IMG/VR virus record: IMGVR_UViG_3300013947_000003
Coordinates: 32,001 to 96,000 of that record
Direction: 5' to 3' (one strand)
DNA from: a virus
Length of the DNA stretch: 64,000 bases
Below are positions 17,082 through 44,426 of this stretch, one piece after another (the first letter of the stretch is position 1; the number at the start of each line of letters is the position of its first letter). A program made the translations under genes and the position numbers. Below the pieces are notes generated by a model. The model searched no databases. It saw only the letters and a list, made by a program, of their open reading frames with translations, and was not told the DNA's origin.

Positions 17082-17095
17082 AATATTAAATTTAG

Positions 17096-21521: not shown

Positions 21522-21636
21522 AATAGAGCCTTCACGGAGTTTTCACCTTGCAAAATAATGGGAGTTTTGTAAGGGCTTTCCTTGGCAACAGAATAAAGCC
21601 AGGTTCCCATAATGTTTAATTCATAATATTATAATA

Positions 21637-21882: not shown

Positions 21883-22085
21883 GAACTTTGGGTTTATGCT
21901 TTCCCAAAGTATAGATAAAAAAGCACAATATTAAAAAACTTATATCCCTATGAGTTTCTTTTATTAAAAGTTTTAGATTAGGGACCTTGTTTTAATCTCG
22001 GTTTCACACCACTATATTATATAGTGTGTTATAGTGGTGGCTTTATTAAAGTATATCACACACTACCACCAAAACATATACATCT

Positions 22086-22232
22086 ATGGAAACATTTGAT
22101 GTTATGTGCCTCCTAACAGTATTGCTTATAATAGCAATTCTGGGAGGCATTGTGTTCCTCCTAGAGGCCACCCCACTGTGGAAGAAGTTTCAAAACTTCA
22201 TTCTCCACATATGGGGTGGAGAGGAAGACTAA
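22086..22232 (+). CDS. 48-aa single-TM peptide with acidic C-terminus
   Basis: Own translation: METFDVMCLLTVLLIIAILGGIVFLLEATPLWKKFQNFILHIWGGEED. Confidence 0.35.
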   Translation: METFDVMCLLTVLLIIAILGGIVFLLEATPLWKKFQNFILHIWGGEED

Positions 22233-22348
22233 CTCACTCTCCTCTCTCCTCACCTCTACTCCTCATTCACTTAATTCTAACCAAAACCTCCCAGGTAGTA
22301 AGGGTGTATTCCCAAGCTTATAAAGCTGTTAAGACCTGTTCAAAAATC

Positions 22349-22738
22349 ATGACAAAATTTAATTTTGCTTACAATCGTCTTCGTGAAGCCTACATGGCAT
22401 TCACACACAGCCGTTCGTACAACTCCTTTCAGGCATGGTATAATGAGTGCCACTACATAGATTGGGTGTGGGGGTATTATGGGGGAATTTTCGAAAGGGC
22501 GGACTACTATAGTAGTCCGCAAAAAGAAAGAGCGCAGAGGGAGTGGGAGAGCTTCCTCCTAAGGACCGCTAAGATATTTGATATCTTAGCGGACTGCACA
22601 GACTGGCACGAATCTGTGCCGTACTTCTATAAGAACGGAGACCCAGAGGCGACTCTCCGTCAATTCTTCCCAGAACTGGAAGAAGCAGACAGAATAAAGA
22701 GGGAATCCTCTTTAGGGAAGGACTACTTCCCATTCTAA
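22349..22738 (+). CDS. hypothetical early protein
   Basis: Internal ATG of track ORF 22106-22738. The upstream 81 codons look non-protein-like and overlap the TM peptide ORF. Confidence 0.5.
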   Translation: MTKFNFAYNRLREAYMAFTHSRSYNSFQAWYNECHYIDWVWGYYGGIFERADYYSSPQKERAQREWESFLLRTAKIFDILADCTDWHESVPYFYKNGDPEATLRQFFPELEEADRIKRESSLGKDYFPF

Positions 22739-22820
22739 TACTCCTAGAAAAAAACTAGTACCCCTAGAGTTTCTACATGAGTAGTTTTAAATAGGGGTTT
22801 CACTTAAATCCTATAAAACA

Positions 22821-23108
22821 ATGAAAAAAGGATTTTATGAGTTCAAAGAAGAACTCCTTCAGCAAATAGATGCTGAAATAGAAAATGCACCTCAACAGTC
22901 AATAACTGTTGAGGAATTTGAGGAATACCTCAACATCCACAATAAAGTAACTAAGTGTGTTGACACCATAGGGCTACTAAAGCTAGCCCAAACCTTTTAC
23001 AGGACACGCTTGTTTAGTGTTTGTAGTACCCCGGACTCCCCAACAACGTCTTCCATAGAGTACTATCTGGGGAAGCTCCAAGAAGTAAGGAGGGAGCTTT
23101 ATGGATGA
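22821..23108 (+). CDS. hypothetical early protein
   Basis: Track ORF, preceded by a hairpin plus the TTCACTTAAA motif. Confidence 0.5.
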   Translation: MKKGFYEFKEELLQQIDAEIENAPQQSITVEEFEEYLNIHNKVTKCVDTIGLLKLAQTFYRTRLFSVCSTPDSPTTSSIEYYLGKLQEVRRELYG

Positions 23109-23364
23109 GAGGCTCTATGAGTTATTGTTGGATTTGACAATCCACATGGCTCAAAGGAGATTCGATCAAAGGATCTCCAAAAGAGATCTCTCTACATGGG
23201 ATCTCTATGAGATATATGAGGAGCTAGACCTCCTCTATAACATGAAACGCACTGAATGGCCTACATTAGTGCGCCTTTCAAAAAAGTACATTGTGTACTT
23301 ATTAAACCAAGAAGGGACAGATAAACTGTTCTTTAAGTCCCTCCTGCAAAACCTAAAAGTATGA
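23101..23364 (+). CDS. hypothetical early protein
   Basis: Track ORF with an overlapping junction. Confidence 0.5.
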   Translation: MDERLYELLLDLTIHMAQRRFDQRISKRDLSTWDLYEIYEELDLLYNMKRTEWPTLVRLSKKYIVYLLNQEGTDKLFFKSLLQNLKV

Positions 23365-23603
23365 GCGAATACTGGGAATGTCTCCAAAAGGATATCAAGG
23401 AGACCAAAGCAGCTGTGGAGGACCTCAACAAACATCTTGAGAAAATCCGCCGTCTAAAAAGAGCTACTCCACAAGAACACGTGGAGAAACAAGAGGAGTT
23501 AAAACAAATAGAGCGAGAGCTCTCTAATGACCTAGACTACTATGAGTTGAAACTCCAAGACCTCACAAAAGAAGAGTGTATGTACGAGTACTTCTGCTCT
23601 TAA
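23361..23603 (+). CDS. hypothetical coiled-coil early protein
   Basis: Track ORF with an ATGA junction. It is followed by the 10-bp hairpin cttggtgggc/gcccaccaag. Confidence 0.5.
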   Translation: MSEYWECLQKDIKETKAAVEDLNKHLEKIRRLKRATPQEHVEKQEELKQIERELSNDLDYYELKLQDLTKEECMYEYFCS

Positions 23604-23699
23604 AATCTGAGCAATTCACTTGGTGGGCTTAAATAGTATGGGCCCACCAAGGCTTTGTATAAGTCAACACATACTACCACATCTAAAACTTATAATACA

Positions 23700-23903
23700 A
23701 TGGAAAAGTTTTCAGATGACCCTATTTGGGTAACAAAAGATGGAGTTAAACTCCATCTTTCTGAGATGTCAACCAGGCATCTCATTAACAGTTTAAACCT
23801 TCTAAGGATTAACTGTGGGTGGAGAGAGCGCTTTGTAGTTCCCATGCTTCGGGAACTTAAAAGGCGTAACATGTTATTTGACTGGTGGTTCTATAATCTC
23901 TAG
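23700..23903 (+). CDS. hypothetical early protein
   Basis: ATG inside track ORF 23655-23903. Ends in TAG. Confidence 0.45.
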   Translation: MEKFSDDPIWVTKDGVKLHLSEMSTRHLINSLNLLRINCGWRERFVVPMLRELKRRNMLFDWWFYNL

Positions 23904-23976
23904 TTAGCATAGAACTAATACCTTCCTAAGTTCTCAAGTTCTTAAAGGGAAGGTTCACTTAAAACGCATAACAACA

Positions 23977-24261
23977 ATGGAAAACAAAACAAATGGAAGG
24001 TGTTTAGCTATCATAGATAGCATCACCTATAATCTTAGGATGCTAGTAGCCACACCGAAACATCCTAATGGAGGTGTATTCTATGTGTGGGCAGCAATAC
24101 AAGCCCACTATCCATATGAGGTACACTTCATTACAGAGTACCAAGGGATGTACCTTGTAGATCCTCGGGTACTCTGCAAAGCAGATAGGAGTACCATAGA
24201 TAATATGGAACTAGAGGCTAAAAGCCTTAGAATCTTAGTATACGAACAAAAAATAAAATAA
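23977..24261 (+). CDS. hypothetical early protein
   Basis: Track ORF, preceded by a hairpin plus the GGTTCACTTAAAAC motif. Confidence 0.5.
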   Translation: MENKTNGRCLAIIDSITYNLRMLVATPKHPNGGVFYVWAAIQAHYPYEVHFITEYQGMYLVDPRVLCKADRSTIDNMELEAKSLRILVYEQKIK

Positions 24262-24319
24262 TATATAACACTCTAACTAAAGCTTGTAGGCTGCTCTAGT
24301 GTGGAACCTTCAAATAATT

Positions 24320-24613
24320 ATGAACATACAGCGTTCCTTCACACTTCTTATCTACTCCATCCTGGCAAATAAGCCCCACACACTCTTTGCAGATAGCTTA
24401 TATCCTGTTAGAGGGATGGCTTTTAAACAAGGAGGCCACCTCTATACCTCAAAGATACATCTGGGGTATATGTTCTACCTAAGCACCCCATACTCAAATG
24501 GTAGGTGCTTTGACCTGCTTGTAATAAGGCAGGGAGAGCAGGTTGATGAACACTGGGGAATAGTGCTTCCCGTAGACACTTTAAAATCTATTATCAATTA
24601 CCTAAAATACTAA
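24320..24613 (+). CDS. hypothetical early protein
   Basis: First ATG within track ORF 24299-24613. Confidence 0.45.
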   Translation: MNIQRSFTLLIYSILANKPHTLFADSLYPVRGMAFKQGGHLYTSKIHLGYMFYLSTPYSNGRCFDLLVIRQGEQVDEHWGIVLPVDTLKSIINYLKY

Positions 24614-24624
24614 CCACCAAAACA

Positions 24625-25083
24625 ATGAAGTTAATAATCCGGCTTCAAAGTAACGTGAATACGTTGCTTACAAACCATTCCCTAGATGGGAAAAGGTTTC
24701 ATAATCATGTGGTTTTCTATCTTAACCTTCATAAAAAGATAGAGCAAAACAGATTCAATCTGTTTAAGACGGCGCTTGTTAATAAACTTAACAGGTGCTG
24801 TCCTGAGTTTGAGGATGTATCCATCAAGCAGGTTAAACACCATGCTTATGATGGGGCAAAAACAATTAACCTCAAAAACCAGCTTTGGGCACTAAATGCC
24901 GCAAGTGAGGAATATATGCTAGAGTTAGTTCTCAAATACATCGTCGATATACTGCGCCTTAATTGTACGCTAAGCAACTATGAAGGCATTGGCGAAAAAG
25001 CCTTTATAATAGCAGATACAGATGATAACATGTTTGAGTATATACTCAATACATATAAAAACGGGGTCATTATAGACGCCTAG
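24625..25083 (+). CDS. hypothetical early protein
   Basis: Track ORF. Ends in TAG. Confidence 0.5.
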   Translation: MKLIIRLQSNVNTLLTNHSLDGKRFHNHVVFYLNLHKKIEQNRFNLFKTALVNKLNRCCPEFEDVSIKQVKHHAYDGAKTINLKNQLWALNAASEEYMLELVLKYIVDILRLNCTLSNYEGIGEKAFIIADTDDNMFEYILNTYKNGVIIDA

Positions 25084-25108
25084 TATCTGTAATCAAATAT
25101 CTAAAATA

Positions 25109-25285
25109 ATGGATAAAGAAAAGAGGCTTGAAGAGCTGCGGTTTGATATAATGCGGCAAGAACTTATCAGTGGATACCTAAATGAAAGACTGATAGAAGT
25201 ATCAAAGAAACTCAAAGAACTGCGTAAAGAAGAAGATGACCTTGAAAGGCAAATCTTCGAAGAACTTGAAGCAGAAGAATACTAA
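25109..25285 (+). CDS. 58-aa coiled-coil protein
   Basis: Own translation MDKEKRLEELRFDIMRQELISGYLNERLIEVSKKLKELRKEEDDLERQIFEELEAEEY. Below the track length cut-off. Confidence 0.4.
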   Translation: MDKEKRLEELRFDIMRQELISGYLNERLIEVSKKLKELRKEEDDLERQIFEELEAEEY

Positions 25286-25470
25286 ACCATCCTATATAAT
25301 AGTGCCCTTGAGGAGTAAAATCCTTGAGGGCATTATTTTTTTCTGCCCGCTTGCGCGTGCAAGTCACTCTTTCCCATGCATGGAAGGCAAGGTTGCCAAT
25401 GAGAGGTTCAACCACCTTCCACATCTTTTCACTTAAAACCTTATGGTGTATAGGTTAACCGTATACTGTT

Positions 25471-25758
25471 ATGTCTAAGTCAATTCTTAGCGGCAAAGTT
25501 TATGCAGGTTCTTGGAATCTCGACTCCACTGAAAACCTCAGCCAAGAGGAACTCAATGCCTTCGAGAAGGCCACGGTGGTAGATTCCATGTATGGACTTT
25601 CTTGCTGCTTTCTAATGCATAGCGGCGAGAAGATCTACGTCCCCATGGCCACCCAAAGTGGGGCCAAAGCAGGGGATGTCCTTGACTTGCACACCATGAA
25701 GAAACTCACCCTCTCCAAATCAGGAGAGGAAGATATTCTTCGTATCATGGAGGGATAA
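25471..25758 (+). CDS. hypothetical early protein
   Basis: Track ORF, last gene of the G+C-richer block. Confidence 0.5.
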   Translation: MSKSILSGKVYAGSWNLDSTENLSQEELNAFEKATVVDSMYGLSCCFLMHSGEKIYVPMATQSGAKAGDVLDLHTMKKLTLSKSGEEDILRIMEG

Positions 25759-25783
25759 TTAAACCCCCTCCTTCCGCTCTACA

Positions 25784-25823
25784 TACCCTCCTGGGAATTA
25801 TTCCTGGGAGGGTATTTTTTTTT
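25784..25823 (+). terminator. rho-independent terminator
   Basis: taccctcc...ggagggta stem followed by a T9 run (25815-25823). Confidence 0.8.
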
Positions 25824-25904
25824 CAGTCACCTCTCTCATCTAAGTTTCCATTACTATTTATTAATCTATATTAACATTAATTAATAGTAATAACATTACT
25901 TTAT

Positions 25905-25975
25905 ATTGGTATATTACCAATTATACCATACTTTTTATTGGTTTATTACCAATTTATACTATTGGTATGTTACCA
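25905..25975. repeat. three palindromic operator-like sites TTGGTA-N3-TACCAA
   Basis: ttggtatattaccaa 25905-25919, ttggtttattaccaa 25937-25951, ttggtatgttaccaa 25961-25975. Confidence 0.55.
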
Positions 25976-26157
25976 ATTTTATCACAACAACCTCACTATA
26001 TGTGTGGGTTATGTTGTTGAATATCAGTGAGTTACAGATGTCCTCACTCCTCCCCACAGTTGGTGGTGCACCGAGTAACTTATAAAAAATCAAAAGGATA
26101 AGTTAAATTATAGCTTTTTTTACCCGCTATTAATTCTCCTCCTTTTTGGTTTTTTAT

Positions 26158-26198: not shown

Positions 26199-26284
26199 GC
26201 CCTTATGATGGAATTGGTAGACATGAGAGACTTAAAATCTCTTGGCCATTATTGGCTGTGTGGGTTCGAGTCCCACTAGGGGTA
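26199..26284 (+). tRNA. tRNA-Leu (anticodon TAA), long variable arm
   Basis: Acceptor GCCCTTA/TAGGGGT. Anticodon stem AGAGA/TCTCT with loop CT-TAA-AA. Long variable arm. T arm GTGGG-TTCGAGT-CCCAC. Confidence 0.85.
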
Positions 26285-26316
26285 CAATTAACAGTATTAA
26301 CTTAAAACTAAACAAA

Positions 26317-26781
26317 ATGGAGTACATTTACAAGATGACTTTAGTGGCAGGTGGAACCACTATCTGTACAAGAAAAGTAAGAACAAAAGAAGAAGGTGAA
26401 TTTCAAGCAAAAGAAATTCTAAAAAACAGACAAGATGTAGTAAAAGTGGAATACTATATCAAAGAAGGAGAAAAAAATAAATGTAATCCTTCGAAAGAAG
26501 AAAAAGTATATAACTACATACTCAAAACGTACTCACAGTTATACGAAACTCCCCTTAAAAAATACCCTAATGTATCTACATTAGCGGTTTTTGGTGCTAC
26601 ATCTAAAATAGTAGATGATATAGAGAGCTATCTTAATATATCTTTTAATGGAGATAGGACATCTTTAGAAGAAGGAGCTCTCTTCATACGCAAACATATA
26701 GAAGACCTCTATAATGCAATAGAAAAGTATAAAATGGACCTCTATAATGCCGACATAGTCGATATTATAGACACATATTAA
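26317..26781 (+). CDS. hypothetical protein
   Basis: First ATG after tRNA-Leu, in the frame of track ORF 26242-26781. Confidence 0.55.
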   Translation: MEYIYKMTLVAGGTTICTRKVRTKEEGEFQAKEILKNRQDVVKVEYYIKEGEKNKCNPSKEEKVYNYILKTYSQLYETPLKKYPNVSTLAVFGATSKIVDDIESYLNISFNGDRTSLEEGALFIRKHIEDLYNAIEKYKMDLYNADIVDIIDTY

Positions 26782-26947
26782 ATGACGTCCTACTTTCTTG
26801 TAGGAACATGTACTATGTTACAGCAGTACTAAAAAAGTCCCAGAAGATGTTGGTGACAAAGCAACCTTCTTAAAATCTATCTGCTACATCGACACTTTGT
26901 CCGTATGAGATGTATGATAGAGGTTAGAGACAATTGGTACTCTAACA

Positions 26948-27044
26948 GACTATATAGTTTATGTGTTAAAACATTCTTATATTACCTATGTGAAAAGTGC
27001 ATGGGGTTATAAGAAAGAAGTAAGTTCGCAACTTACTGTAGTCG
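26948..27044 (+). tRNA. tRNA-like gene with 32 nt between the anticodon-stem halves
   Basis: Acceptor GACTATA/TGTAGTC, D stem GTTT/AAAC, T arm GTAAG-TTCGCAA-CTTAC. Anticodon stem TTCTT (26974-78) and AAGAA (27011-15) enclose 32 nt instead of 7. Confidence 0.4.
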
Positions 27045-27063
27045 CACTTCATTTTGTAATAAT

Positions 27064-27183
27064 AGGTATATAGTTTAACTAAAGTAAAACACCATTACAG
27101 TCTATTTTTAGAGTGTTAGTTTGATTTTTTGTTGGCCATTGTTTTCAGTAATGGAGATATAGGTTCAAATCCTATTATACCTT
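27064..27183 (+). tRNA. tRNA-like gene with 44-nt insertion flanked by CCATT direct repeat
   Basis: Acceptor AGGTATA/TATACCT, D stem GTTT/AAAC, T arm ATAGG-TTCAAAT-CCTAT. CCATT occurs at 27092 and again at 27136, and AATGG at 27150. The loop next to the second copy is gttttcagt. Confidence 0.45.
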
Positions 27184-27243
27184 CTATATAAGTATCGTTT
27201 TTAGATTGTTAAAACTAGTGGTACGTGAGTATAGCTAGTATAT

Positions 27244-27317
27244 GGTCCTTTAGCTTAGTTGGTTAGAGCACCTGACTCATAATCAGGGAGTCGTAGGTTC
27301 AAGCCCTACAAGGACCA
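27244..27317 (+). tRNA. tRNA-Met/Ile2 type (anticodon CAT)
   Basis: Canonical cloverleaf GGTCCTT...CCTGA-CTCATAA-TCAGG...GTAGG-TTCAAGC-CCTAC-AAGGACC-A. Confidence 0.9.
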
Positions 27318-27363
27318 CTTCATTGTATTGTTGGTTTTAAGTGAAACAATTGGTTATTAACCA

Positions 27364-27431
27364 GGCTCTTTAGTTTAATGTAAAACATTCTATAGTATAG
27401 AAAGATGTAGGGTCATATCCTACAAGAGCTG
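27364..27431 (+). tRNA. tRNA-like gene with 5-nt anticodon loop
   Basis: Acceptor GGCTCTT/AAGAGCT. T arm GTAGG-GTCATAT-CCTAC. The anticodon arm TTCTA-tagta-TAGAA is 15 nt instead of 17. Confidence 0.35.
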
Positions 27432-32738: not shown

Positions 32739-33659
32739 ATGAAAAGCAAAACATTTATGGCATTTGCCAAAGGTACTGACACCTCTAAAACAGTAGAATT
32801 TAATCGTTATTGGGGCATTGCTCCCTGTTTTGTTAAGGCAGTAAATCCTAATAAAGAAGAAATGGAAAAACTATTTAATACCACTATAGAAAATGAGCCT
32901 AGCTATATAAGTGAATTAGATATAGATGGTGAGAAAATCATCAATGCCAGAGTAACTTTTGTAGTACAACCTGATATAGAAGGAGTAGAACCTATTTCTA
33001 TATCCTTCTTTGTAAGGCACCAATATCGCTTTAATCGTGATAAAACTAAAATACAAGTTATAGACAAGTATGCTCGTACAGCATGGGTAACTAAAGAAGA
33101 CCTACAGACTCATAATATACCTATCTATAGTAATGGCAAGCTCGCCAACATAGACAAGGACTATCGTCCGGTATTTGTTGGTGAGGAAAATCTTACTAAG
33201 TTTATGATAGAATATCTTGGTGTTCCCGGCTTAGAGTATTTCCGTGATGGTGAATGGCATAAAAATACCAATTCTGCAGACTGTGAAGCCCGTTTTGATG
33301 GTATTGAAAAGATCTTTACAGGGGATGTCAAAGAAATTAAGGAAATCATTGCACTTCAACCCACAAATAAAGTAAAGATTATGTTTGGTGTACGTAATAC
33401 CAATGATGGTAAACAGTATCAGACATTTTTTAGCGACGGCTTCCGTCGTAATAATTCTCAAAAGAAATCTACCCTTGCATTCTTTGAAAAAGAACTTGAA
33501 GATCGTAAAGCCATTGGTGCTTATAGTACTTCTGAATTTAAAGTAGGTGATTTTGAAAAATATACAGTAGAACCTACAGAAATTAAGCCTAATGACACCA
33601 GTGATCTTCCTTTTGGGGATGATCCATTCTCTACAACTCCTAAAACACCTTGGGAATAA
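32739..33659 (+). CDS. hypothetical protein (ssDNA-binding role possible by position)
   Basis: Track ORF. It has an acidic C-terminal tail DLPFGDDPF, typical of SSB-type proteins. Confidence 0.45.
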   Translation: MKSKTFMAFAKGTDTSKTVEFNRYWGIAPCFVKAVNPNKEEMEKLFNTTIENEPSYISELDIDGEKIINARVTFVVQPDIEGVEPISISFFVRHQYRFNRDKTKIQVIDKYARTAWVTKEDLQTHNIPIYSNGKLANIDKDYRPVFVGEENLTKFMIEYLGVPGLEYFRDGEWHKNTNSADCEARFDGIEKIFTGDVKEIKEIIALQPTNKVKIMFGVRNTNDGKQYQTFFSDGFRRNNSQKKSTLAFFEKELEDRKAIGAYSTSEFKVGDFEKYTVEPTEIKPNDTSDLPFGDDPFSTTPKTPWE

Positions 33660-33662
33660 AAG

Positions 33663-34649
33663 ATGTTTAGCCACGGACAGCCAACTATATCAATAGATGA
33701 TGTTTTAAAACATACTACTGAAGCAGATATTGCTTCAAAGTACCTAGGGATAAATAAAATTCCTACGGTCATTTGTAGTCCTTTAAGAGAAGATAAAAAG
33801 CCTTCCTTTGCAATATATTCTCCTGATGATAAAAGTGTAAACTATCGAGATTTTGCTAATGGGGATAAAGGAACTATTTTTACCTTACTTTCTCATATAT
33901 GGAATACTTCATTTAGAGAAACTCTTAAAAGAATAAATGATGACAATGTTCATAGTTCAATTAGTATTAGGAAAACTATCTCTAAAAACAGCATTATTAG
34001 AAACTCTCGCATAGAACTTTTATGTAAAGTAAGAGAATGGAGAGATTATGATATAGAATATTGGAAGTCTTATGGTGTACCTTTAAAGTGGCTAAAATAT
34101 GCAGATGTATATCCTATATCTCACAAAATAATAAAAAAAAACAATGAGACTTTTATATTTGGTGCAGATAAGTATGCATATGCATTTGCGGAATTTAAAG
34201 AAGGCAAAACAACTTTAAAGATATATCAACCTTTTAATAAACAAGGCTATAAGTGGTCTAATCAACATGATAAAAGTGTAATAAGTTTATGGACTAAAGT
34301 GCCTTCTTTTGGGGATAGAGTATGTATATGCTCCTCCCTAAAAGATGCACTATGTCTATGGGCTAATACAGGAATTCCTTCAATTGCCATTCAAGGAGAA
34401 GGCTATAGTATGAGTAATACTGCAATTAATGAACTCAAAAGGCGTTTTAAACAAGTTTTTATATGTTTGGATAATGATCCTCCGGGCTTGTTAGATGCAC
34501 AAAAGTTAGCTTCAAAAACAGAGTTTATTAATATAGTTCTTCCTAATGAATACAATCAAAAAGACATTTCTGACTTATACAAATATTTAAACAACAAACA
34601 ACTCTTTATTAACATTTTTAAAAAGCTTTTTAATTATGGAACCTCGTAA
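33663..34649 (+). CDS. DNA primase (Toprim domain)
   Basis: The IQGEG acidic motif and the CLDNDPPG DxD motif of Toprim. Confidence 0.65.
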   Translation: MFSHGQPTISIDDVLKHTTEADIASKYLGINKIPTVICSPLREDKKPSFAIYSPDDKSVNYRDFANGDKGTIFTLLSHIWNTSFRETLKRINDDNVHSSISIRKTISKNSIIRNSRIELLCKVREWRDYDIEYWKSYGVPLKWLKYADVYPISHKIIKKNNETFIFGADKYAYAFAEFKEGKTTLKIYQPFNKQGYKWSNQHDKSVISLWTKVPSFGDRVCICSSLKDALCLWANTGIPSIAIQGEGYSMSNTAINELKRRFKQVFICLDNDPPGLLDAQKLASKTEFINIVLPNEYNQKDISDLYKYLNNKQLFINIFKKLFNYGTS

Positions 34650-35232
34650 AATTTATGTAGTAGACACTCGCCGTGAAAAAACAACTATTACAACAGGTGC
34701 AGAAACTCTTGGCGAACTCAAAGAAGCACTTCACAATCACAATATTGAATGTGATGGTATGACATTCTTTGAAGGCTATAGTGCTGTAGAATTAAAGGAC
34801 GACTCTTCACAACTTCCTAAGGATGTAAAGAAGCGTAATGGCGAAACTACGAATGAGCTTCTTATTATGATTACAAATTCCGCTAAAAAGATTAAATCAG
34901 GAATGATGTCTCGTCAAGAGGTTTATAATAAGATTAAAGAATTAAATCTTGCTGCTAAAACACGTGAACACTTTGGTAAACCTTATACACAGATATCTAC
35001 AGCAGAGCTATTAAGCTTTATTGAAGATCAAAAATATCCCGCAGAAAAGTGTGGTTATGCTGAAGATCTTCGTACAGCTTTAGCTCAGCTTACTAATCTT
35101 CTTGTAGAAAAAGAAGTTATTTCTCGTGCAGAAGCAACTGAAGCTATGCGTTCAGTTAAATGTGAATGGGAAGAAAAAGTTGATTTCCCTTCAGATGAAG
35201 AAATCGACGAGATGTTTGCGAAATTTAAATAA
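34636..35232 (+). CDS. hypothetical protein; N-terminal about 88 aa has a beta-grasp (ubiquitin-like) secondary-structure pattern
   Basis: KIYVVD-TRRE-KTTITT-GAETLGELKEALHNHNI-...MTFFEG...ELLIMITNSAKKIKSG. This is pattern only, with no sequence motif. Confidence 0.5.
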   Translation: MEPRKIYVVDTRREKTTITTGAETLGELKEALHNHNIECDGMTFFEGYSAVELKDDSSQLPKDVKKRNGETTNELLIMITNSAKKIKSGMMSRQEVYNKIKELNLAAKTREHFGKPYTQISTAELLSFIEDQKYPAEKCGYAEDLRTALAQLTNLLVEKEVISRAEATEAMRSVKCEWEEKVDFPSDEEIDEMFAKFK

Positions 35233-35248
35233 TTAATTCTATTAAACT

Positions 35249-35294
35249 AAAGGGAGAGTGAGAGTTTCATCATCTTGCTCTCCCTTTATTTTTT
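35249..35294 (+). terminator. rho-independent terminator/attenuator
   Basis: aaagggagag...ctctcccttt, a 10-bp stem followed by a T-rich run. It ends 3 nt before ATG 35298. Confidence 0.65.
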
Positions 35295-35297
35295 ATT

Positions 35298-36314
35298 ATG
35301 GAAAGTATACAGAAAGACATTTGTTCAAGATTTATAGACTTCTTTGGAGAAGACTTTGTTGATGTACAAGAACCAGCTAATACATCTACTATTAAAATAA
35401 TAATATATTTTCCTAAACTAACGGTAACTAATGAGGGTAATGACAGTATTGACATTAAAGATACTTATGTAAGGTTTAGTATATATGATGACGGTTCTAT
35501 AAGCACGCACATTAATGTAGCAAGGGCTTATTATACATATAAACAATATGCCAGTCATTATGTACATAGTCATTGTCCCAGATTTAATACGCCAGGCCAA
35601 TGGTCAGCCTTTTGTTTAGGAACAGGTCCTATAACATTTACTATGTTTAATATTTGTAGAAATATTACAAATGGTAATGTAGATTTAGACCTATATACGC
35701 TCTTTGCAAGTGAGCTAAAACTATTATTAGGAGTGGAGTCTTTAGATGGAGGTCCTTACATAACATTAAGTTCTGTACATAATTATACCGAATATCTGGA
35801 AGAACTACAAATTCAATATAATATAAAGATGAGAGACTCTTTAATGGATGGATTTATAGACTATTTATGTAGAATACAACCATTTGAGTTTAATTTTAAC
35901 GGTTATTATTATGGATTTGCATATAGTACTTCGGATTTAATGATATTAATGGCAAATGAGTTTATAAAGTATTGTAATACCTTTAGCGAGGATAAAAGGC
36001 CTAATATGGATACTTTATTTTCATTAGGAGTTTTGTGTAAAGGATTTAAACGTTCTGGACGTATTTATAAATACACTAACGGAACATTAAGTGTTAATAA
36101 TATACCAAAAGCAACTGCTATTACTTTCAAAGGAAAAGTTGTTCCTTTAATAGTTGAACCTGATAAATCAAATAAAAAGTCCTATATAGTACTTTTAAAT
36201 CCTAGTAAATTTGCATATGTAACAACAACAATATTAGAAAGACTAAATTATGCAGCAACAAGTGGAAATCACCCAGAATCACCAAGTATCACCATACTTA
36301 ATTGTGGGCAGTGA
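35298..36314 (+). CDS. E2 (UBC)-like protein candidate with extra C-terminal domain
   Basis: HYVHSHCPRFNTPGQWSAFCLGTGP resembles the UBC HPN-x(n)-G-x-(I/L)-C-L active-site stretch, preceded by a beta-meander-like region. Motif-level evidence only. Confidence 0.35.
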   Translation: MESIQKDICSRFIDFFGEDFVDVQEPANTSTIKIIIYFPKLTVTNEGNDSIDIKDTYVRFSIYDDGSISTHINVARAYYTYKQYASHYVHSHCPRFNTPGQWSAFCLGTGPITFTMFNICRNITNGNVDLDLYTLFASELKLLLGVESLDGGPYITLSSVHNYTEYLEELQIQYNIKMRDSLMDGFIDYLCRIQPFEFNFNGYYYGFAYSTSDLMILMANEFIKYCNTFSEDKRPNMDTLFSLGVLCKGFKRSGRIYKYTNGTLSVNNIPKATAITFKGKVVPLIVEPDKSNKKSYIVLLNPSKFAYVTTTILERLNYAATSGNHPESPSITILNCGQ

Positions 36315-37299
36315 TGTAGAAAATAAAATAAAATATCTATGTAATAAAATACCCGACACTGAATGGTCAGGAGTATTATTTTACAAAACAAAAGATACTT
36401 ATGAAGAGGGACTTAAAGTTATATGTGTAGATTTATATTTAATGGATATAGGAACTATAACATATACTGAATTTAATACTTCCCCCTCCCTTGCTCATTA
36501 TATTGCAATGAATGATTTGTTTGAATATGAACAAGCGTTAATTCATTCGCATAATCACATGGCTACCTGTCCTAGTGGCACTGATATTGCTACACTAAAA
36601 GAAGAAGGCAGTGAAAGAATACATTTTGTATCATTAATTGTTAATAATGCAGGTACTTATAGTGCGTTTATAACTAGAAAATGTATTACTATTCAAAATA
36701 TTGAAGAAACTGCAAAATACAAAACTTTTGGTGGTGTAGAAGTGGAATCTAAGAATATATATACAAAAGAATTAACTAAAATAGAGTATAGTAAAATGGA
36801 AATTATCAAAGAAGATATAGACTATTCTGAAATTGATTCTAGAATAGCAGAAATACAAGAAGAAAAAAGGAAGCAAGAGGAATTAAGGAAAAAGGAAGAA
36901 ATAAAAAATCCTTTTTATTATCAAAAAATATTTAATTACGAAGAGTATAAAAAGCCTTTAATAAATCTTCCTATTGATGATAAACAAGTACAAAGTATTC
37001 TAAGACAAATAATTACCGGTAGTGTTCTTTCTGCCAATAATATTAAACTGGATTTATATGAATGGGTTCCTAAAATGGAGTCTATATATGATCATAGATT
37101 TAAAACTTTAGATTCCTATAACTGTTGGATAGACAGCTTTTTAGAAGCATTGTTTTCTGAGTATACCGAGGGAGAAGGCTTCTATAAAATAGATGAGGGT
37201 AGAAATCTCGCCGAAAAACTTTATAATGAAATATCTAAGTTTACACCTAATAAATATATTAAAATTATTAAAAACAGTCTTTTATTATGGATGGAGTAA
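36250..37299 (+). CDS. JAB/MPN+ (JAMM) metallopeptidase
   Basis: The conserved Glu (DTEWSGVLF) and the complete JAMM motif HSHNHMATCPSGTD (HxH-x7-S-xx-D). The start is uncertain: it overlaps the upstream gene by 65 nt, with an alternative GTG near 36303. Confidence 0.8.
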   Translation: MQQQVEITQNHQVSPYLIVGSDVENKIKYLCNKIPDTEWSGVLFYKTKDTYEEGLKVICVDLYLMDIGTITYTEFNTSPSLAHYIAMNDLFEYEQALIHSHNHMATCPSGTDIATLKEEGSERIHFVSLIVNNAGTYSAFITRKCITIQNIEETAKYKTFGGVEVESKNIYTKELTKIEYSKMEIIKEDIDYSEIDSRIAEIQEEKRKQEELRKKEEIKNPFYYQKIFNYEEYKKPLINLPIDDKQVQSILRQIITGSVLSANNIKLDLYEWVPKMESIYDHRFKTLDSYNCWIDSFLEALFSEYTEGEGFYKIDEGRNLAEKLYNEISKFTPNKYIKIIKNSLLLWME

Positions 37300-38096
37300 A
37301 TAATATAAGTGAAGATCTAATGGCAGAAATAAATGCTGCTATAGATGCAATAGAACAAGAAGAACAACAGCCTCTTCAAGAGAATTCTGAAACATTATTA
37401 GTAAAAGAGAATACCATTCGTTTTAATAGTGCAGAATGGTTTAATCAGATACAAAAAACATCAGTGGCTATTGCCGGTTGTGGAGGAATCGGCTCTTGGA
37501 CATCATTATTAATAGCCAGATTGAATCCTATATGGATATATCTATTTGATAATGATACTGTGGAAGAGGTTAATCTTGCGGGGCAACTGTTTTCCAATAA
37601 AGATGTAGGAAGGTATAAAACAAACGCCTGTGTTGAGAATATAGCGAATTTTTGCAACTATTCTAAGTTCAATGCCTATAATAGAAGGTTTGAATGTGTC
37701 TCTATAGTGCATTCTAAAAATCTAATTTGTGGCTTTGACAATATGGCTGCTCGTAAAGATGCTTTTAAACAATGGTTTAATGCAAACAATGGAAACTCGG
37801 AAGCTATATTTATAGACGGAAGGCTTAATGCAGAAGATTTTCAGATTTTCTGTATTACAGGAGATAATGAGAGTGCGGCTCATAAATATAGTAAACAGTA
37901 TTTATTTGACGACAAAGATGTTGAGAATGCAGTTTGTTCATACAAACAAACTTCATTTTGTGCTAGTATGATTGCGTCATTAATTACCAATCTGTTCGTT
38001 AATTATGCAGCTAATATAGCCTTAGGAGATTTTAGATGTCTTCCTTTTAAGATATCTTATGATGCAACAACTATGTTATTAAAGACTGAAGTATGA
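37287..38096 (+). CDS. ThiF/MoeB/E1-like adenylyltransferase
   Basis: Rossmann motif AIAGCGGIGS, then LFDNDTVEEVNLAGQ, DVGRYKT and CGFDNMAARK, the ThiF-family adenylation motifs. Confidence 0.8.
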   Translation: MDGVNNISEDLMAEINAAIDAIEQEEQQPLQENSETLLVKENTIRFNSAEWFNQIQKTSVAIAGCGGIGSWTSLLIARLNPIWIYLFDNDTVEEVNLAGQLFSNKDVGRYKTNACVENIANFCNYSKFNAYNRRFECVSIVHSKNLICGFDNMAARKDAFKQWFNANNGNSEAIFIDGRLNAEDFQIFCITGDNESAAHKYSKQYLFDDKDVENAVCSYKQTSFCASMIASLITNLFVNYAANIALGDFRCLPFKISYDATTMLLKTEV

Positions 38097-38692
38097 AAAT
38101 ATCGGATCACACCAAAGCAACAATATTTAAATTTTTAACAACTGCTGATATTGTCCATCAATATAAGACGGACTACTCAATATCTTTAGTATATAATAAT
38201 ATGTGTTTTCCTAAAATATTAAGAAAGGAGATTGATATTGGTAATTTAGGAAATATAATAAGGGGTATACCTTTAAATATAGATCGTTGTCTTTTAAAAG
38301 TATCTTCAGTTTTAAAAACAATAAAATATGCTCCAAGAACTAAATTAGCATTTTATAGTGTTGATAACAGTCTTAGATATTTTATTGGATGTGGATGTAT
38401 ATTCAATGACAAATTAGATCCCGTTTTACTATCATATTGTAATAAAACGGATCTGTTTGGAAGACAACATGCAAATTGTTTATATGCAAATATATATATA
38501 AATGCTTCGTTTATTAATAATAACAATAAACTGAATAATTTTATAAGTAAAAAAATCATTCCAGTAGCTACAATATATAAACATAATGTTACTATACTAG
38601 ATGATTCTAAAATGCGATCATTAGTATTTAAACCTAATAATGTTGGAACTGATAAAAATACTTGTTGGCATATGATAAATCTGCGACAATAA
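38093..38692 (+). CDS. hypothetical protein translationally coupled to the E1-like gene
   Basis: ATGA overlap with the E1-like stop. Track ORF. Confidence 0.5.
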   Translation: MKISDHTKATIFKFLTTADIVHQYKTDYSISLVYNNMCFPKILRKEIDIGNLGNIIRGIPLNIDRCLLKVSSVLKTIKYAPRTKLAFYSVDNSLRYFIGCGCIFNDKLDPVLLSYCNKTDLFGRQHANCLYANIYINASFINNNNKLNNFISKKIIPVATIYKHNVTILDDSKMRSLVFKPNNVGTDKNTCWHMINLRQ

Positions 38693-40952: not shown

Positions 40953-41850
40953 ATGAAAGTATTAAAAAGAGATGGGACTCTTGAAATGTTTAACCCTGAT
41001 AAAATTATAGCAGCTGTAGAAGCAGCCTATAAATCACAGGGTAAAACTATGGGAAGTGATGTGTTATTAAGTCTTAAGGGCATTATTAATATTCATGGGG
41101 AAATTATAAGTGTTGAAACTATTCAGGATAAAGTAGAAAAGATACTTATAGACCTTGCACCTTATGATGTTGCTAAATCTTATATTATATATAGGGAAGC
41201 ACATAATCAATCTAGATTTGTTAGAGAAAGACTTGATTATATGAATAAATATGCTAATTCTTCAGATAATGCAGCTACTTCATCAGAAACAGATGCCAAT
41301 GCTAATGTTTCTATGAAGAATGTAGCTAATCTTGAAGGAGAAGTATATAAAACTACTAATAGAATTATTCAGAGGCAACGCATGAAAGATAAACTTAACG
41401 AACTCTTCCCTGAAGTTGCTAAACAGTATGAAAAAGACTTAAATGATCATATTATATATGTCCATGATGAGGCTTCTAGTCCTACTTTAAAATATTATTG
41501 CTGTGCAGTAACCCTCTATCCATTAATGGTTGAAGGGGTTGGTAATATAGACGGTATTACTCCAATACCCCCTAATGATATACAATCTTTCAGTGGGCAA
41601 ATTACTAACCTTGCATTTCTACTATCTTCACAATGTAAGGGTGCAGTAGCTTTTGGAGATTATTTTATCGCACTTAATTATTATGTAATTAAAGAATTTG
41701 GTCCTAAGTGGTATGAAAAAGTAAATGAAGTTGTCACTAATGAGTATTATATAGAAAAGCATACTATGGCTCACTATATAAGAAAAGGTATGAAACAATT
41801 TATATATGGAGTAAATCAACCTGCTGGTAATAGAAGTTATAATTCTCCGT
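40953..41850 (+). CDS. nrdD: anaerobic ribonucleotide reductase NrdD, exon 1
   Basis: ATP-cone-like N-terminus. The frame stops 2 codons after ...YNSP. Joining 41850 to 43162 restores SPFTNVSYYD. Confidence 0.8.
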
Positions 41851-43161
41851 GGTAAAAATAAAACTTTTTTTGTCATTTGGTTGATTAGGAATTTTTTATT
41901 AACTTTGCATAAAGATTATAAATTATGCAAAGAAAAGATAGAAAATTTAATAAAACTCCAGAATGGTTATACGAACAATATGTTTTAAAGGAAAAACCTA
42001 GGACAGAAATAGCCAAAGAATGTGGAGTATCTGAAGCTGGATTAAAAAGTGTTTTAATAAAATACAATATTAAAAAAATTCCATTTGTACGCCCTATAAA
42101 AGAAATAAAACAATATTTGCAAGAAGGAAAATCCGTTACTGAAATATCTAAATTATTAAAATGTGGTAAAACTACTATATATAGAGTAATGAAGGATTCA
42201 AATTTATCTATTAACTATACACCTGATTATAAACAATATGATAGTAGCAAAGACGAATTAATAATTTCACTATATTTAGAAGGATATTCTTCTACAGAAA
42301 TTGCGAAAGCTCTTAATAGTACACACACAACTATTATAAAGCATCTAAAACACAATAATATTCCCATAAGAAGTTTTGTAGAATGTCAATTTAATCACTT
42401 GAACAAAGAGATTCCTAAAGAGCTAATCTCTTATAAGTTATTACATCAGCTCTATATAATAGAGCATAAAAGCAAAAAAGAAATAGCAAATTCATTAAAT
42501 GTTGATGCTGGAACCATTAATACTGCTTTAAAAAAGTTTAATATTCATATAAGAGGAAATTCTGAGTCTAAAATAGGTTTAAAATGTGGAGAAAACCACC
42601 ATAATTGGAAAAATGGCATAACTCCATTACATTTAAGACTTAGAGAAGCTTTTGGGGTACAATTAACGAACCAAGTGCTGAAAAGAGATGGTTACAAGTG
42701 TACAAAATGTGGAACTAAAGGTAAATTACATGTACATCATATAAGACACTTTAAAGATATTTTATGGGAAATAATAAATGAACATCCGACTTTAGATATA
42801 CAAAAAGATGTAAATACTTTATATGACATTATAGTAAAGGATACTAGATTTTTAGATTTAAATAACTTAATAACCCTTTGCCCTAATTGTCATTATGAAG
42901 AGCATAGTAAGAAACATTGTTTTGCGGAGAATAAACGTAGTGAATTGCTGGAAAATCCAGAAGTGGACAATCAGCAGCCGAGCATTAATAACAATGAAGG
43001 TCCAGAGACTATTCCAAAAGGAAGTACACTCAAGTGAGTGGAAGTGCTACGCTCTATTTAGAATATTCTATTTAGATGAAGATATAGTCCAAACTCTATA
43101 GTAATATAGAGAAGTTCATAAGAGAACTGCATAGAATTAACGACTCTATGTGAATATAATG
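41851..43161 (+). mobile_element. group-I-type intron carrying an HNH endonuclease
   Basis: The 5' exon ends in T and the insert ends in G (aatG at 43161). Precise excision gives an in-frame NrdD. It has 74 nt plus 124 nt of non-coding flanks. Confidence 0.7.
41925..43037 (+). CDS. HNH homing endonuclease with repeated HTH modules
   Basis: HVHHIRHFKD...NLITLCPNCHYEEH, plus 4 or more sigma/HTH-like repeats (TEIAKECGVS, TEISKLLKCG, TEIAKALNST, KEIANSLNVD). Confidence 0.8.
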   Translation: MQRKDRKFNKTPEWLYEQYVLKEKPRTEIAKECGVSEAGLKSVLIKYNIKKIPFVRPIKEIKQYLQEGKSVTEISKLLKCGKTTIYRVMKDSNLSINYTPDYKQYDSSKDELIISLYLEGYSSTEIAKALNSTHTTIIKHLKHNNIPIRSFVECQFNHLNKEIPKELISYKLLHQLYIIEHKSKKEIANSLNVDAGTINTALKKFNIHIRGNSESKIGLKCGENHHNWKNGITPLHLRLREAFGVQLTNQVLKRDGYKCTKCGTKGKLHVHHIRHFKDILWEIINEHPTLDIQKDVNTLYDIIVKDTRFLDLNNLITLCPNCHYEEHSKKHCFAENKRSELLENPEVDNQQPSINNNEGPETIPKGSTLK

Positions 43162-44426
43162 TTACAAACGTTTCTTACTACGATAAATATTACTTCAAAT
43201 CTTTGTTTGAAAACTTTAAATATCCCGATGGAACAGAACCAGAATGGAAGGCTATAGATACTTTACAGAGAATGTTTATGCAACTTCATAGGGAATTAAG
43301 ACTTATAAAACCATTAACTTTCCCTGTAAGTACAATGGCTCTTGTATATGATGATCAAGACTATCTAGATAAAGAATATAAAGAGTTATGTGCAGAAGAA
43401 TGGGCAAAAGGAGGAAGTTTCTTCCTATATAGCAACAACAACCCAACATCTTTGGCAAGTTGCTGTAGAGTTTTGTCCGAAATAACCGATAATACCTTTA
43501 GTTCTACTACAGGTATGGCAGGTATTATGACTGGTTCTTGTAATGTCATTACATTGAATATCAATAGAATAGTACAAGATTGGTATAGAACACTTCCTAA
43601 TGGCTATGTATATGGAGATTATCAAGGTCTTAAAGATTATATTAAAGTCATATTAGAACGTGTATATAAGTATCACATAGCTTTCAAAACAATGCTCTAT
43701 GATTTAGAGAATAAAGGTATGTTTGCCGCATCTAATGGAGGATACATTTATATGAGAAAGCTATATAGTACTATAGGTATTATAGGGTACTTTGAAGCTG
43801 CTAAGTTTTTAGGAATTACTCCTAATAATAATGAAGAATATAAACACTTTTTACAAGCAATTCTTGGTGTAGTAAAAGAAGAAAATACAGCACATTCTAT
43901 AAGAGATAAAAAGCGCCCTATTTTATTTAATTTTGAAGCTATTCCTGGTGAGAATTTAGCAGTAAAATTATATAATTGGGATAAAAAAGACAACTATGTA
44001 GTTCCTAAAGATCAAAATTTGTATAATTGTTATTTCTATAATCCTTGGGATAATACGTCTATCTTAGATAAAATTAAACTGCATGGCAAAGAAACTAGTA
44101 AATTAACCTCAGGAGGCCAAGCTTGTCATCTTAATTTAGACGAACATCTATCTAAAAAGCAGTATTTACAACTTATGGATATATTTAGAACAGAAGGCGC
44201 TAATTATGTAACTTTTAATATACCTATGAGTGAGTGTAAAGAGTGTGGATGTACAGTTAATGCCCCCATTATAGAATGCCCTAAGTGCAAGTCTAAAAAT
44301 ATAAAGTGGTGGACGCGCATAATTGGTTATCTTACCAGTGTAGATGCTTGGTCTAAACCTAGACAAGAAGAGTTTAAAAAGAGAGTATATGCTAAAATAT
44401 CTAGAGACACAGATAACATTCAGTGA
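43162..44426 (+). CDS. nrdD: NrdD, exon 2
   Basis: C-terminal CKECGC...CPKC zinc site and the glycyl-radical motif TRIIGYL. Confidence 0.8.

Follow-up and report, generated by a model that had tools for sequence, protein, structure and literature searches.

A preliminary description of a stretch of viral DNA, made from the letters alone, raised the question of whether a phage encodes a complete ubiquitin-like protein (Ubl) conjugation system of its own and carries it among its replication genes. The DNA concerned (the window) comprises 64,000 nucleotides (nt), positions 32,001 to 96,000 of IMG/VR virus record IMGVR_UViG_3300013947_000003; it has ~30% G+C, contains tRNAs and is part of a ~96-101 kb phage that is repeatedly found in metagenomes. 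Five consecutive genes on its plus strand form the module under study: a Ubl precursor gene (34636-35232, 198 amino acids, aa), the gene for an E2-like protein (35298-36314, 338 aa), the gene for a JAB/JAMM (MPN+) metallopeptidase (36250-37299, 349 aa, prolonged at the C-terminus by a long helical part), the gene for an E1-like adenylating enzyme (37287-38096, 269 aa, a single ThiF-fold domain) and a fifth gene (gene 5, 38093-38692, 199 aa). All five open reading frames (ORFs) and every motif quoted for the JAB protein, the E1-like enzyme, the E2-like protein and the Ubl were recovered, and the translational coupling proposed for the last four genes agrees with real overlaps of 65 nt (E2-like/JAB), 13 nt (JAB/E1-like) and 4 nt (E1-like/gene 5, ATGA). 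We put at roughly 60% the probability that the module is a phage Ubl activation and conjugation cassette, located in the replication block of Steigviridae-type crAss-like phages and FpV4-group Flavobacterium phages. What is observed comprises the protein folds, active sites that are both intact and invariant, a domain boundary and the genetic linkage; we infer all of the chemistry.

The Ubl precursor and its predicted processing site

Structure prediction and structural searching, as the preliminary description had recommended, confirmed its guess that the first gene encodes a beta-grasp domain. The AlphaFold model of the precursor, computed with 34 homologues as input (predicted local distance difference test score, pLDDT, of 80), has strands at residues 4-10, 15-20, 42-46, 51-53 and 75-81 and a helix at residues 25-34, the beta-grasp order as in ubiquitin, followed by a disordered tail that ends at the invariant Gly89 (residues 83-89, AKKIKSG, with KKIKSG at 84-89; pLDDT < 50). 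With the full two-domain protein as the query, Foldseek matched SUMO1, ubiquitin variants, NEDD8, ISG15 and BilA (8tyx_A) in the PDB at probability 1.0, with target-normalised template modelling (TM) scores of 0.6-0.68 and expectation (E) values of ~1e-3; UBX, DIX and FERM domains were likewise among the best 50 PDB matches, and neither ThiS nor MoaD was. By AlphaFold and Foldseek, residues 1-89 (34636-34902, plus strand) form the ubiquitin-like beta-grasp domain, and residues 90-198 (34903-35232, plus strand) form a C-terminal domain composed of a three-helix unit, a variable linker, a helical region and an acidic tail.

Conservation was counted in 69-75 distinct IMG/VR homologues per protein, which are 22-77% identical to the window proteins. 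For the Ubl, of which 81 homologue clusters were found, Ser88 and Gly89 occur in every one of the 75 distinct IMG/VR homologues, whose identity to the window protein is 36-77%, the KKI[KR]SG motif occurs in all 80 IMG/VR Ubl loci parsed, and the residue after Gly89 is usually Ala. The window protein is homologous to gp79 of crAss001, and a 289-aa protein of phage FpV4 is a distant homologue (hhalign 97%) with ...KQVKSGG. Ser88-Gly89 is the predicted site of both cleavage by the JAB peptidase and activation by the E1-like enzyme; since Gly89 is internal in the window protein, processing would be required.

Independent support, at the level of sequence, for the earlier suggestion that the rest of the protein is a removable C-terminal extension comes from the uncultured Steigviridae phage cr106_1 (MT774378). 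In this phage an HNH endonuclease gene (record segment 7281-7796) sits exactly at the junction between the Ubl and the C-terminal domain: the Ubl ORF stops after ...EKKIKSGKF, with its C-terminus two residues past the Gly, and the C-terminal domain follows the HNH gene as an ORF of its own that starts METKIMTRNE.... Because the split is found only in cr106_1 among 56 IMG/VR relatives, the others all reading on past residue 90, the insertion is a recent one that has left both halves intact and separately translated, as would be expected if the Ubl and the C-terminal domain normally separate post-translationally at the Gly.

The C-terminal domain is itself conserved. Residues R93, I100, L105, T118 and L125 are invariant or nearly so in the alignment and conservation counts, AlphaFold places helices at residues 93-102, 106-113 and 122-133, and the precursor ends in a conserved acidic tail (...SDEEIDEMF or ...SDEEIDDMF). 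No family match to this domain was found in Pfam or the PDB, and its HeH/SAP-like and single-stranded DNA-binding protein (SSB)-tail-like looks are impressions only. Eukaryotic fusions of ubiquitin to ribosomal proteins provide a parallel for a removable N-terminal Ubl, and conservation of the C-terminal domain fits an alternative in which this domain, as a replication accessory with an SSB-like acidic tail, is the true product, the Ubl is a removable chaperone or timer, and the E1-like and the E2-like protein act otherwise. Also consistent with maturation alone are the maintenance of the C-terminal domain as an intact ORF in cr106_1, the position of the Ubl gene beside the primase gene in relatives (with a UDG gene in between in FpV4) and the finding that MccB is the best PDB match of the E1-like enzyme. 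Yet the Ubl half of cr106_1 is also kept as an intact, free-standing ORF, the similarity to MccB is confined to the shared nucleotide-binding motif, and this alternative leaves unexplained both the strict co-occurrence of the E1-like, E2-like and JAB genes with the Ubl gene, overlaps included, and the invariant Cys in the E1-like enzyme's crossover loop and in the E2-like protein. We regard it as unlikely.

A hairpin that sets the Ubl gene apart from those of the enzymes had been put forward as a caveat to their linkage. It is real: an intrinsic terminator or attenuator (35248-35294, plus strand) consists of a 16-bp stem at 35248-35288 (free energy -23.9 kcal/mol, z -5.8; none of 200 shuffled sequences folds equally well) and a U-tract that ends 3 nt 5' of the start codon of the E2-like gene. 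A hairpin followed by U7-9 occupies the equivalent position in six of six relatives (crAss001, bajarodcaudo virus, cr106_1, FpV4, DAC15 and cr128_1), and since the stem sequences of these six are unrelated, the element is conserved in position and not in sequence. As an objection to linkage the caveat falls, because the conserved position argues for a connection between the Ubl and the enzymes. We read the element as an attenuator that may set high Ubl and low enzyme expression, so that the Ubl would probably be in excess over the enzymes.

The peptidase, E1-like and E2-like enzymes

The JAB gene encodes a complete and invariant JAMM site, in line with the preliminary description. The motif occupies aa 99-112 (HSHNHMATCPSGTD, nt 36544-36585) with the upstream Glu74, and Glu74, His99, His101, Ser109 and Asp112 (E ... 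HxH x7 S xx D) are invariant in homologues. Although Pfam Prok-JAB remains below its gathering score for the window protein (20.8 versus 25 bits, E 3.6e-4), a profile built from seven phages matches PfJAMM1 of Pyrococcus (5lda, with SAMP2) at 6e-4 and CSN5 at 0.04 in the PDB, with the Glu, HxH and SxxD residues aligned. At the level of profile similarity, its nearest solved relatives are thus the Ubl-specific isopeptidases PfJAMM1/SAMP2 and CSN5, and the protein is unlike tail-assembly JAB proteins in both context and best matches.

The E1 call holds as well. Pfam ThiF (PF00899) matches aa 50-191 of the E1-like enzyme at 2.8e-17 (63.1 bits versus a gathering score of 28.1), and the adenylation motifs GCGGIGS (aa 64-70), DNDTVEEVNLAGQ (aa 88-100) and FDNMAARK (aa 150-157) are all in place. 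The Gly residues of the GxGxxG nucleotide loop (G64, G66, G67), both Asp of DxD (D88, D90), K111, the Mg-binding Asp of (G/C)xDN (D151) and R156 are invariant in seven phages and present in 68-70 of 70 IMG/VR sequences, and Cys217 in the crossover-loop region (CSYKQT, nt 37935-37937) is found in 68 of the 70, the other two having gaps. The best PADLOC matches are Cap2 E1-E2 models (to 1e-9), the best NCBIfam matches are ThiF models (5.5e-16 and 7.6e-15), and a profile of the family matches MccB, UBA5, PaaA, TcdA, Uba1, Cap2, ThiF and MoeB in the PDB, with MccB first. All NCBIfam equivalogs of ThiF and MoeB score far below their cut-offs (59 versus 159 bits, for example).

The second protein is the weakest of the assignments: the window protein has no match in Pfam, PHROGs, PADLOC or NCBIfam. 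Its AlphaFold model (pLDDT 86; blocks of the N-terminal domain 86-98) contains an N-terminal domain of UBC-like topology (aa 1-165) and, on its C-terminal side, an alpha/beta domain (aa 166-325) in which an FKGK motif is conserved. The N-terminal domain consists of a helix (3-16), four strands, long ones among them (21-24, 31-45, 50-63 and 72-80), a loop and two further helices (111-124 and 130-144), and the putative active-site stretch His90-Cys106 (HSH x13 C, 35565-35615, plus strand; aa 90-108 are HSHCPRFNTPGQWSAFCLG) falls within the loop that joins strand 4 to helix 111-124. In E2 enzymes the catalytic Cys is expected about 8-16 residues beyond an HPN-like motif that comes after strand 4; the position of Cys106 and its spacing from His90-Ser-His92 fit an E2, though the motif is HSH rather than HPN. 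In IMG/VR homologues with 22-52% overall identity, His90, Ser91, His92, Cys106, Glu147 and Ser148 are invariant or nearly so (H90 and C106 in 72 of 74 sequences, S91 and H92 in 73 of 74), the exceptions being gaps from truncated contigs and a single H90F substitution. Cys94, the cysteine of the HSHC stretch quoted in the preliminary description, is not conserved; Cys106 is the invariant one. The family is very large, with at least 3270 representatives at 50% identity; when 1.84 billion representatives were searched by profile, the best 150 matches all belonged to the close family, with no bridge to a named family, and Foldseek against BFVD returned uncharacterised phage proteins only. In the PDB, Foldseek with the full two-domain protein as the query found an RWD domain (2ebk, E 0.24, TM 0.39), the E2 UbcA1 (3we5, TM 0.40) and UFC1 (TM 0.29-0.35), and only the RWD, UbcA1 and four UFC1 entries exceed 110 aligned columns at a root-mean-square deviation below 7.5 A. 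A papain-like or NlpC/P60 peptidase, considered for a protein with conserved Cys and His, found no Foldseek match in support. The protein encoded at 35298-36314 is probably E2-like, a tentative assignment because UBC-like topology and invariant residues stand beside sequence tests that were all negative and structural matches that were non-significant; what has held of the original E2 call is the topology and the invariant His and Cys residues, and what has not is membership of an E2 family by sequence or structure.

Several results weigh against a conjugation cassette. For the E2-like protein, the structural matches to UBC and RWD folds are non-significant (E 0.24-1.8, TM at most 0.40), BilB and Cap2, whose structures are in the PDB library, are absent from the best 50 Foldseek matches, and no E2 family (UQ_con, Prok-E2_A-E, BilB, Cap2-E2 or PRTRC-B) was found for 35 family members in Pfam, PADLOC or NCBIfam. 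The profile of the family gave no match to PDB sequences at E <= 10, and hhalign gave a probability of 0.1 for four eukaryotic E2 sequences drawn from general knowledge and of 0.06 for the Prok-E2_D protein of Ralstonia phage Dina. The E1-like enzyme cannot be placed in a subfamily, since its PDB matches run only through the shared Rossmann part, and the Arg of the NLxRQ motif, which is kept in MccB (NLTRQ) and in the PRTRC ThiF of Dina (NMGRQ), is replaced by Gly99 (nt 37581-37583) in 70 of 70 sequences. The Ubl tail terminates in Ser-Gly, not Gly-Gly, and no target, E3 or conjugate is known for the module. Neither of the outcomes that the preliminary description had named as fatal to its reading (searches showing that the second protein is not UBC-like and that the first has no beta-grasp domain, or an E1 that groups with TcdA-, MoeB- or ThiF-type enzymes together with a JAB protein that groups with those of tail assembly) was found. 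As an observation in its own right, the phage E1 clade has an invariant, clade-specific Arg78 near Gly99.

The same data bear on a second alternative, in which the Ubl would be a sulfur carrier of the ThiS/MoaD/CysO/QbsE type that is trimmed by the JAB protein, adenylated by the E1-like enzyme and converted to a thiocarboxylate from which a small molecule, nucleotide or DNA would receive its sulfur, and the "E2-like" protein would be a sulfur-transfer or metal-dependent enzyme acting through HxH...C...E. Trimming of a carrier extension by a JAB protein is known for Mec+ and QbsD. The location of the module among nucleotide and DNA metabolism genes would suit such a pathway, as would the ThiF models at the head of the NCBIfam matches of the E1-like enzyme and an E2 assignment that is unproven, HxH, C and E being able to form a metal site; Ubl, JAB and E1 with a removable extension are also the CysO/QbsE arrangement (Iyer, Burroughs and Aravind, 2006, and general knowledge). 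In a scan that covered the module only, however, we found no ThiF or MoeB equivalog score above its cut-off, no Gly-Gly terminus, no rhodanese domain on the E1-like enzyme and no desulfurase or other sulfur-donor gene. The best 50 structural matches of the Ubl include ubiquitin, SUMO, NEDD8, ISG15, UBX, DIX, FERM and BilA without ThiS or MoaD, and the relation of the JAB protein to Ubl isopeptidases points the same way. A sulfur-carrier pathway is therefore quite unlikely in our view.

Linkage, distribution and a proposed pathway

The five genes travel together. Among 80 IMG/VR loci fetched via the Ubl, 70 have the order Ubl-E2-JAB-E1-gene 5 and 4 have Ubl-E2-JAB-E1; the remaining 6 are short and end before the module does, so that no untruncated locus breaks the order. 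Annotations of crAss001 (gp80-gp75), bajarodcaudo virus, cr106_1, DAC15 and cr128_1 likewise show primase-Ubl-E2-JAB-E1-gene 5, and in FpV4 a UDG gene stands between the primase-like gene and the Ubl gene. Since the motif residues are essentially invariant in 69-75 homologues and the order is kept in untruncated loci, the module is not a chance assembly. Gene 5 belongs, as a divergent member, to the gp75 family of crAss001, a relationship visible by hidden Markov model (HMM) alone: an HMM of 65 IMG/VR homologues, built without the window protein, matches gene 5 at 1.2e-9, whereas tblastn against phages and searches of Pfam, PHROG, PADLOC and NCBIfam gave no match, and no similarity to PRTRC-F or Dina gp01 was found.

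Searches of the phage collection with the E2-like protein and with the JAB protein matched an identical set of 74 records, made up of crAss-like phages of Bacteroides, 29 phages of Flavobacterium psychrophilum and six uncultured Steigviridae; the E1-like enzyme matches these and 7 others. A megablast search with the 4 kb module region found no match in this collection, which therefore holds no close DNA relative of the window phage. Among 185,579 bacterial and archaeal species genomes (one per species), the phage E1 type occurs at merely six loci, all on contigs of metagenome-assembled genomes and one of them 94 kb long, from which we take the module to be a trait of a phage lineage. Tblastn of the E1-like enzyme against plasmids returned a single unrelated Thermus ThiF, and a single E1 protein as the query against viral contigs retrieved no related loci, whereas alignment queries succeeded.

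Confinement of this E1 type to phage-like contigs is compatible with a third alternative, in which the cassette interferes with host Ubl immunity (Bil or CBASS type II) or tags and disables host defence proteins and does not serve replication. The characterised bacterial relatives, Bil and Cap2/Cap3, all act in phage-host conflict, and the strongest PADLOC matches of the E1-like enzyme are to CBASS Cap2. Anti-defence genes typically occupy variable accessory regions and turn over fast, whereas the module has a fixed site in the replication block and is conserved across a very deep divergence, from Bacteroides crAss-like phages to FpV4, and its homology to Bil or Cap proteins stops at the generic E1 fold. 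We hold counter-defence to be very unlikely as the role of the cassette.

Outside the lineage, a distant relative of the E1-like enzyme (29% identity) occurs in Xanthomonas and Erwinia jumbo phages (~227-229 kb), among them Xanthomonas phage PhiXhv-16 (PV764603, record segment 4947-5630), where the gene adjoins DNA topoisomerase genes; no E2-like or JAB partners of the jumbo-phage relatives were detectable by tblastn.

For a conjugation cassette we propose the following pathway. The Ubl would be made as a precursor in which the beta-grasp domain is fused via ...K-K-I-K/R-S-G to the helical C-terminal domain, and the JAMM peptidase would cut after Gly89 to yield a free Ubl with a C-terminal Gly and a separate C-terminal-domain protein, as suggested by analogy to BilC/BilA, BubC, CsRpn11 and QbsD and by the split gene of cr106_1. 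The single-domain E1-like enzyme, with its intact adenylation motifs and invariant Cys217, would adenylate Gly89 with ATP and take the Ubl onto Cys217, from where it would pass to Cys106 of the E2-like protein and then to target lysines, the weakest step of the scheme. The C-terminal domain of the E2-like protein, the gene 5 protein or both would select targets, and the JAB protein may also reverse the modification. The fixed site between the primase gene and repair and nucleotide-metabolism genes suggests that the targets are proteins of the phage replisome or DNA-associated proteins of the host. To the broader proposition that Steigviridae-type crAss-like phages and related Flavobacterium phages run a complete Ubl conjugation cascade of their own, with a very large, hitherto unrecognised E2-like family and a Ubl produced as a fusion precursor, which tags phage replisome or host proteins, we give an even chance.

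Parts of the module had been labelled before. The GenBank record of crAss001 names the E1-like enzyme "thiamine biosynthesis protein" and the JAB protein "metalloprotease domain containing protein", and one GenBank record names the former "E1 enzyme family protein". In the supplement of Yutin 2021, a genome map of crAss-like phages (beta-group) carries the labels "ThiF family" and "MPN, metalloprotease", and AXQ62721 (E2-like), AXQ62722 (Ubl) and AXQ62718 (gene 5) are left uncharacterised; neither the main text of that paper nor the crAss001 paper discusses the module genes. A full-text literature search of incomplete coverage found no paper that links crAss-like phages with ubiquitin, E1 or JAMM. 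The earlier statement that such a set had not been described for crAss-like phages therefore stands for the Ubl, the E2-like protein and the reading as a system, which alone are new here, and not for the ThiF and MPN proteins.

Steigviridae-type crAss-like phages are among the most abundant viruses of the human gut, and prokaryotic Ubl conjugation has so far been shown to act only in bacterial anti-phage defence (Bil, CBASS Cap2/Cap3) or is uncharacterised (PRTRC, Bub). The module has the same logic, yet in a large lineage of virulent phages, the cultured crAss001 and DAC15 included, it is a fixed component of the replication block. If our reading is correct, Ubl tagging would serve the infection programme of the phage itself, used by a virus rather than against it, and a new and very large E2-like family would be added. 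Five genes that are now "hypothetical" or misnamed "thiamine biosynthesis protein" in dozens of phage genomes gain a probable function. Genes gp75-gp79 of crAss001, with Bacteroides intestinalis as the host, would offer a tractable system, in which trypsin cleavage after K/R87 is predicted to leave a Ser-Gly remnant on the target lysine (calculated shift, +144.054 Da).

The placement of the module in a replication region, as originally described, is borne out by the flanking genes. Family scans of the window proteins identified a DnaB-like helicase, an AAA_24 ATPase and a primase upstream, and a DUF1064 resolvase, a PD-(D/E)XK exonuclease and the anaerobic ribonucleotide reductase NrdD downstream. 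Just upstream of the primase gene, at the position of crAss001 gp81, 32739-33659 (plus strand) encodes a 306-aa protein without a family match that ends in ...DLPFGDDPF..., the resemblance of which to an SSB-type acidic and aromatic tail is an impression only. Within the module, the E2-like and JAB genes overlap in different frames at 36250-36314; the overlap is 50-125 nt in most relatives, unusually long and conserved, and the encoded protein ends are poorly conserved and of low confidence. A programmed frameshift was considered at this site, and no slippery sequence is visible in the window.

Further features lie elsewhere in the window. A tRNA with a CTA anticodon (17095-17168, minus strand; an amber suppressor, labelled tRNA-Pyl by ARAGORN) adjoins a tRNA-Arg(TCT) at 17566-17638, and the plus strand carries tRNA-Leu(TAA), tRNA-Met and a fifth tRNA within 26199-27431. 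The CTA-anticodon tRNA suggests that a portion of the genome is under TAG recoding, which some crAss-like phages are known to use. The region at ~20000-26000 has a G+C content of 0.39-0.43 as opposed to ~0.30 elsewhere, contains few ORFs of at least 120 aa and coincides with a switch of the coding strand, where the GC skew changes sign; an Rfam scan found no family there besides tRNA, and the region could consist of recoded genes, non-coding DNA or acquired DNA. At 40953-44426 the anaerobic ribonucleotide reductase gene is seemingly interrupted: after an ORF with an ATP-cone and the NrdD N-terminal part (40953-41855) come a free-standing HNH endonuclease that has several HTH/NUMOD domains (41925-43037) and then another long ORF (43203-44426), an arrangement that looks like an insertion of the homing-endonuclease or intron type.

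Comparison with known Ubl systems

The gene order that had been likened to Bil matches the published order of BilABCD operons of types I and II, Ubl-E2-JAB deubiquitinase (DUB)-E1 (Chambers et al., PMC10557695). The phage module has the same four predicted activities in the same order, and its Ubl is closest to ubiquitin and SUMO and not to ThiS or MoaD, with BilA itself among the structural matches. As in BilA, where the JAB DUB removes the extra residues that follow a conserved Gly, the phage Ubl continues past its conserved Gly; and the E2 BilB, which works with no separate E3, resembles the E2-like protein in the long loop that separates strand 4 from the putative catalytic Cys (PMC10557695). 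Membership of Bil nevertheless fails on the E1 architecture, the BilB motif arrangement and the Bil models. The Bil E1 combines IAD, AAD and an inserted CYS domain in ~500 aa, whereas the phage E1-like enzyme is a 269-aa single adenylation domain with its Cys in a short crossover loop and not in a CYS domain. BilB has the motif C-x5-E-x-H-x4-H, whereas the phage protein has H-x-H upstream of the Cys and the Glu far downstream, and an equivalence of the two motifs was rejected on their order (C138, E144, H146, H151 versus H90, H92, C106, E147). The PADLOC models of BilA, BilB and BilC do not match the phage Ubl, E2-like and JAB proteins, and that of BilD matches the E1-like enzyme only partially (2.7e-5). 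In addition, the phage E2-like protein has a further domain of ~170 aa, the extension of the Ubl forms a conserved domain of ~110-160 aa as against at most 9 residues in Bil, there is a fifth conserved gene, and the module lies in the replication block of a virulent phage, whereas Bil operons lie in bacterial defence islands.

By E1 similarity, the closest system is PRTRC (TIGR03736 PRTRC_ThiF at 7e-14, although its 51.7 bits lie below the cut-off of 144.75; hhalign 97.8% to the ThiF of Dina), which corresponds to an operon type, 6d, of Prok_Ub, alpha-hel2, Prok-E2_D, DUF2016+Prok-JAB and ThiF (Iyer, Burroughs and Aravind, 2006). It shares with the module the order Ub ... E2-JAB-E1 followed by an unknown gene, and carriage by mobile elements that include a phage. 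Ralstonia phage Dina (39 kb, NC_055026, 947-5299) has a complete PRTRC set, consisting of E, C (Prok_Ub), F (alpha-hel2), B (Prok-E2_D), A (DUF2016 + Prok-JAB) and ThiF, and therefore represents a second phage-borne Ubl/E2/JAB/E1 set that is unrelated in sequence. The Prok_Ub beta-grasp of Dina ends in ...GRKG and continues with a 65-aa extension. Pfam detects Prok_Ub, Prok-E2_D, DUF2016 (JAB-N) and alpha-hel2 in Dina and none of them in the module proteins of the window, and hhalign comparison of the phage Ubl and E2-like profiles with the Dina proteins gave probabilities of at most 0.14. The conserved His of Prok-E2_D follows the Cys (Dina; Iyer 2006), whereas that of the phage E2-like protein precedes it; the alpha-helical PRTRC-F gene is absent from the module; and PRTRC ThiF retains the RQ arginine that the phage E1-like enzyme has lost.

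The enzyme set had also been compared to Cap2 and Cap3 of CBASS. The predicted activities are shared with CBASS type II, namely adenylation of the E1 type, transfer of the E2 type and a JAB protein as antagonist or processor, and Cap2 models head the PADLOC matches of the E1-like enzyme. Membership of CBASS does not follow, as the module has no CD-NTase, effector or E1-E2 fusion, and its substrate is a dedicated beta-grasp Ubl, whereas that of CBASS is the C-terminus of the cGAS-like enzyme. Production of the Ubl as a fusion precursor or with a C-terminal extension recalls the archaeal Caldiarchaeum Ub/Rpn11 system and Bub operons, in which the Ubl is part of a Ubl-E2 fusion, BubAB, and is set free prior to activation by a peptidase that the operon encodes (Ye et al., PMC11601596). 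Bub, however, uses oxyester (serine) intermediates and a peptidase-E1 fusion, whereas the phage proteins have conserved cysteines and a separate JAMM peptidase, and the fusion partner of the phage Ubl is a non-enzymatic helical domain. A beta-grasp Ubl with a conserved Gly, fused to a C-terminal domain and adjoining a JAB protein, is likewise found in the tail module of lambda and T1, where the JAB domain of TAPK (JAB+NlpC/P60) is predicted to cut the TAPI Ubl at its conserved C-terminal Gly (Iyer 2006); that pair serves processing only and has no E1 or E2, whereas the present set lies in a replication module with an E1-like and an E2-like protein. These comparisons place the module outside Bil, PRTRC and CBASS, although it most likely works as they do, through JAB processing, E1 activation and E2 transfer.

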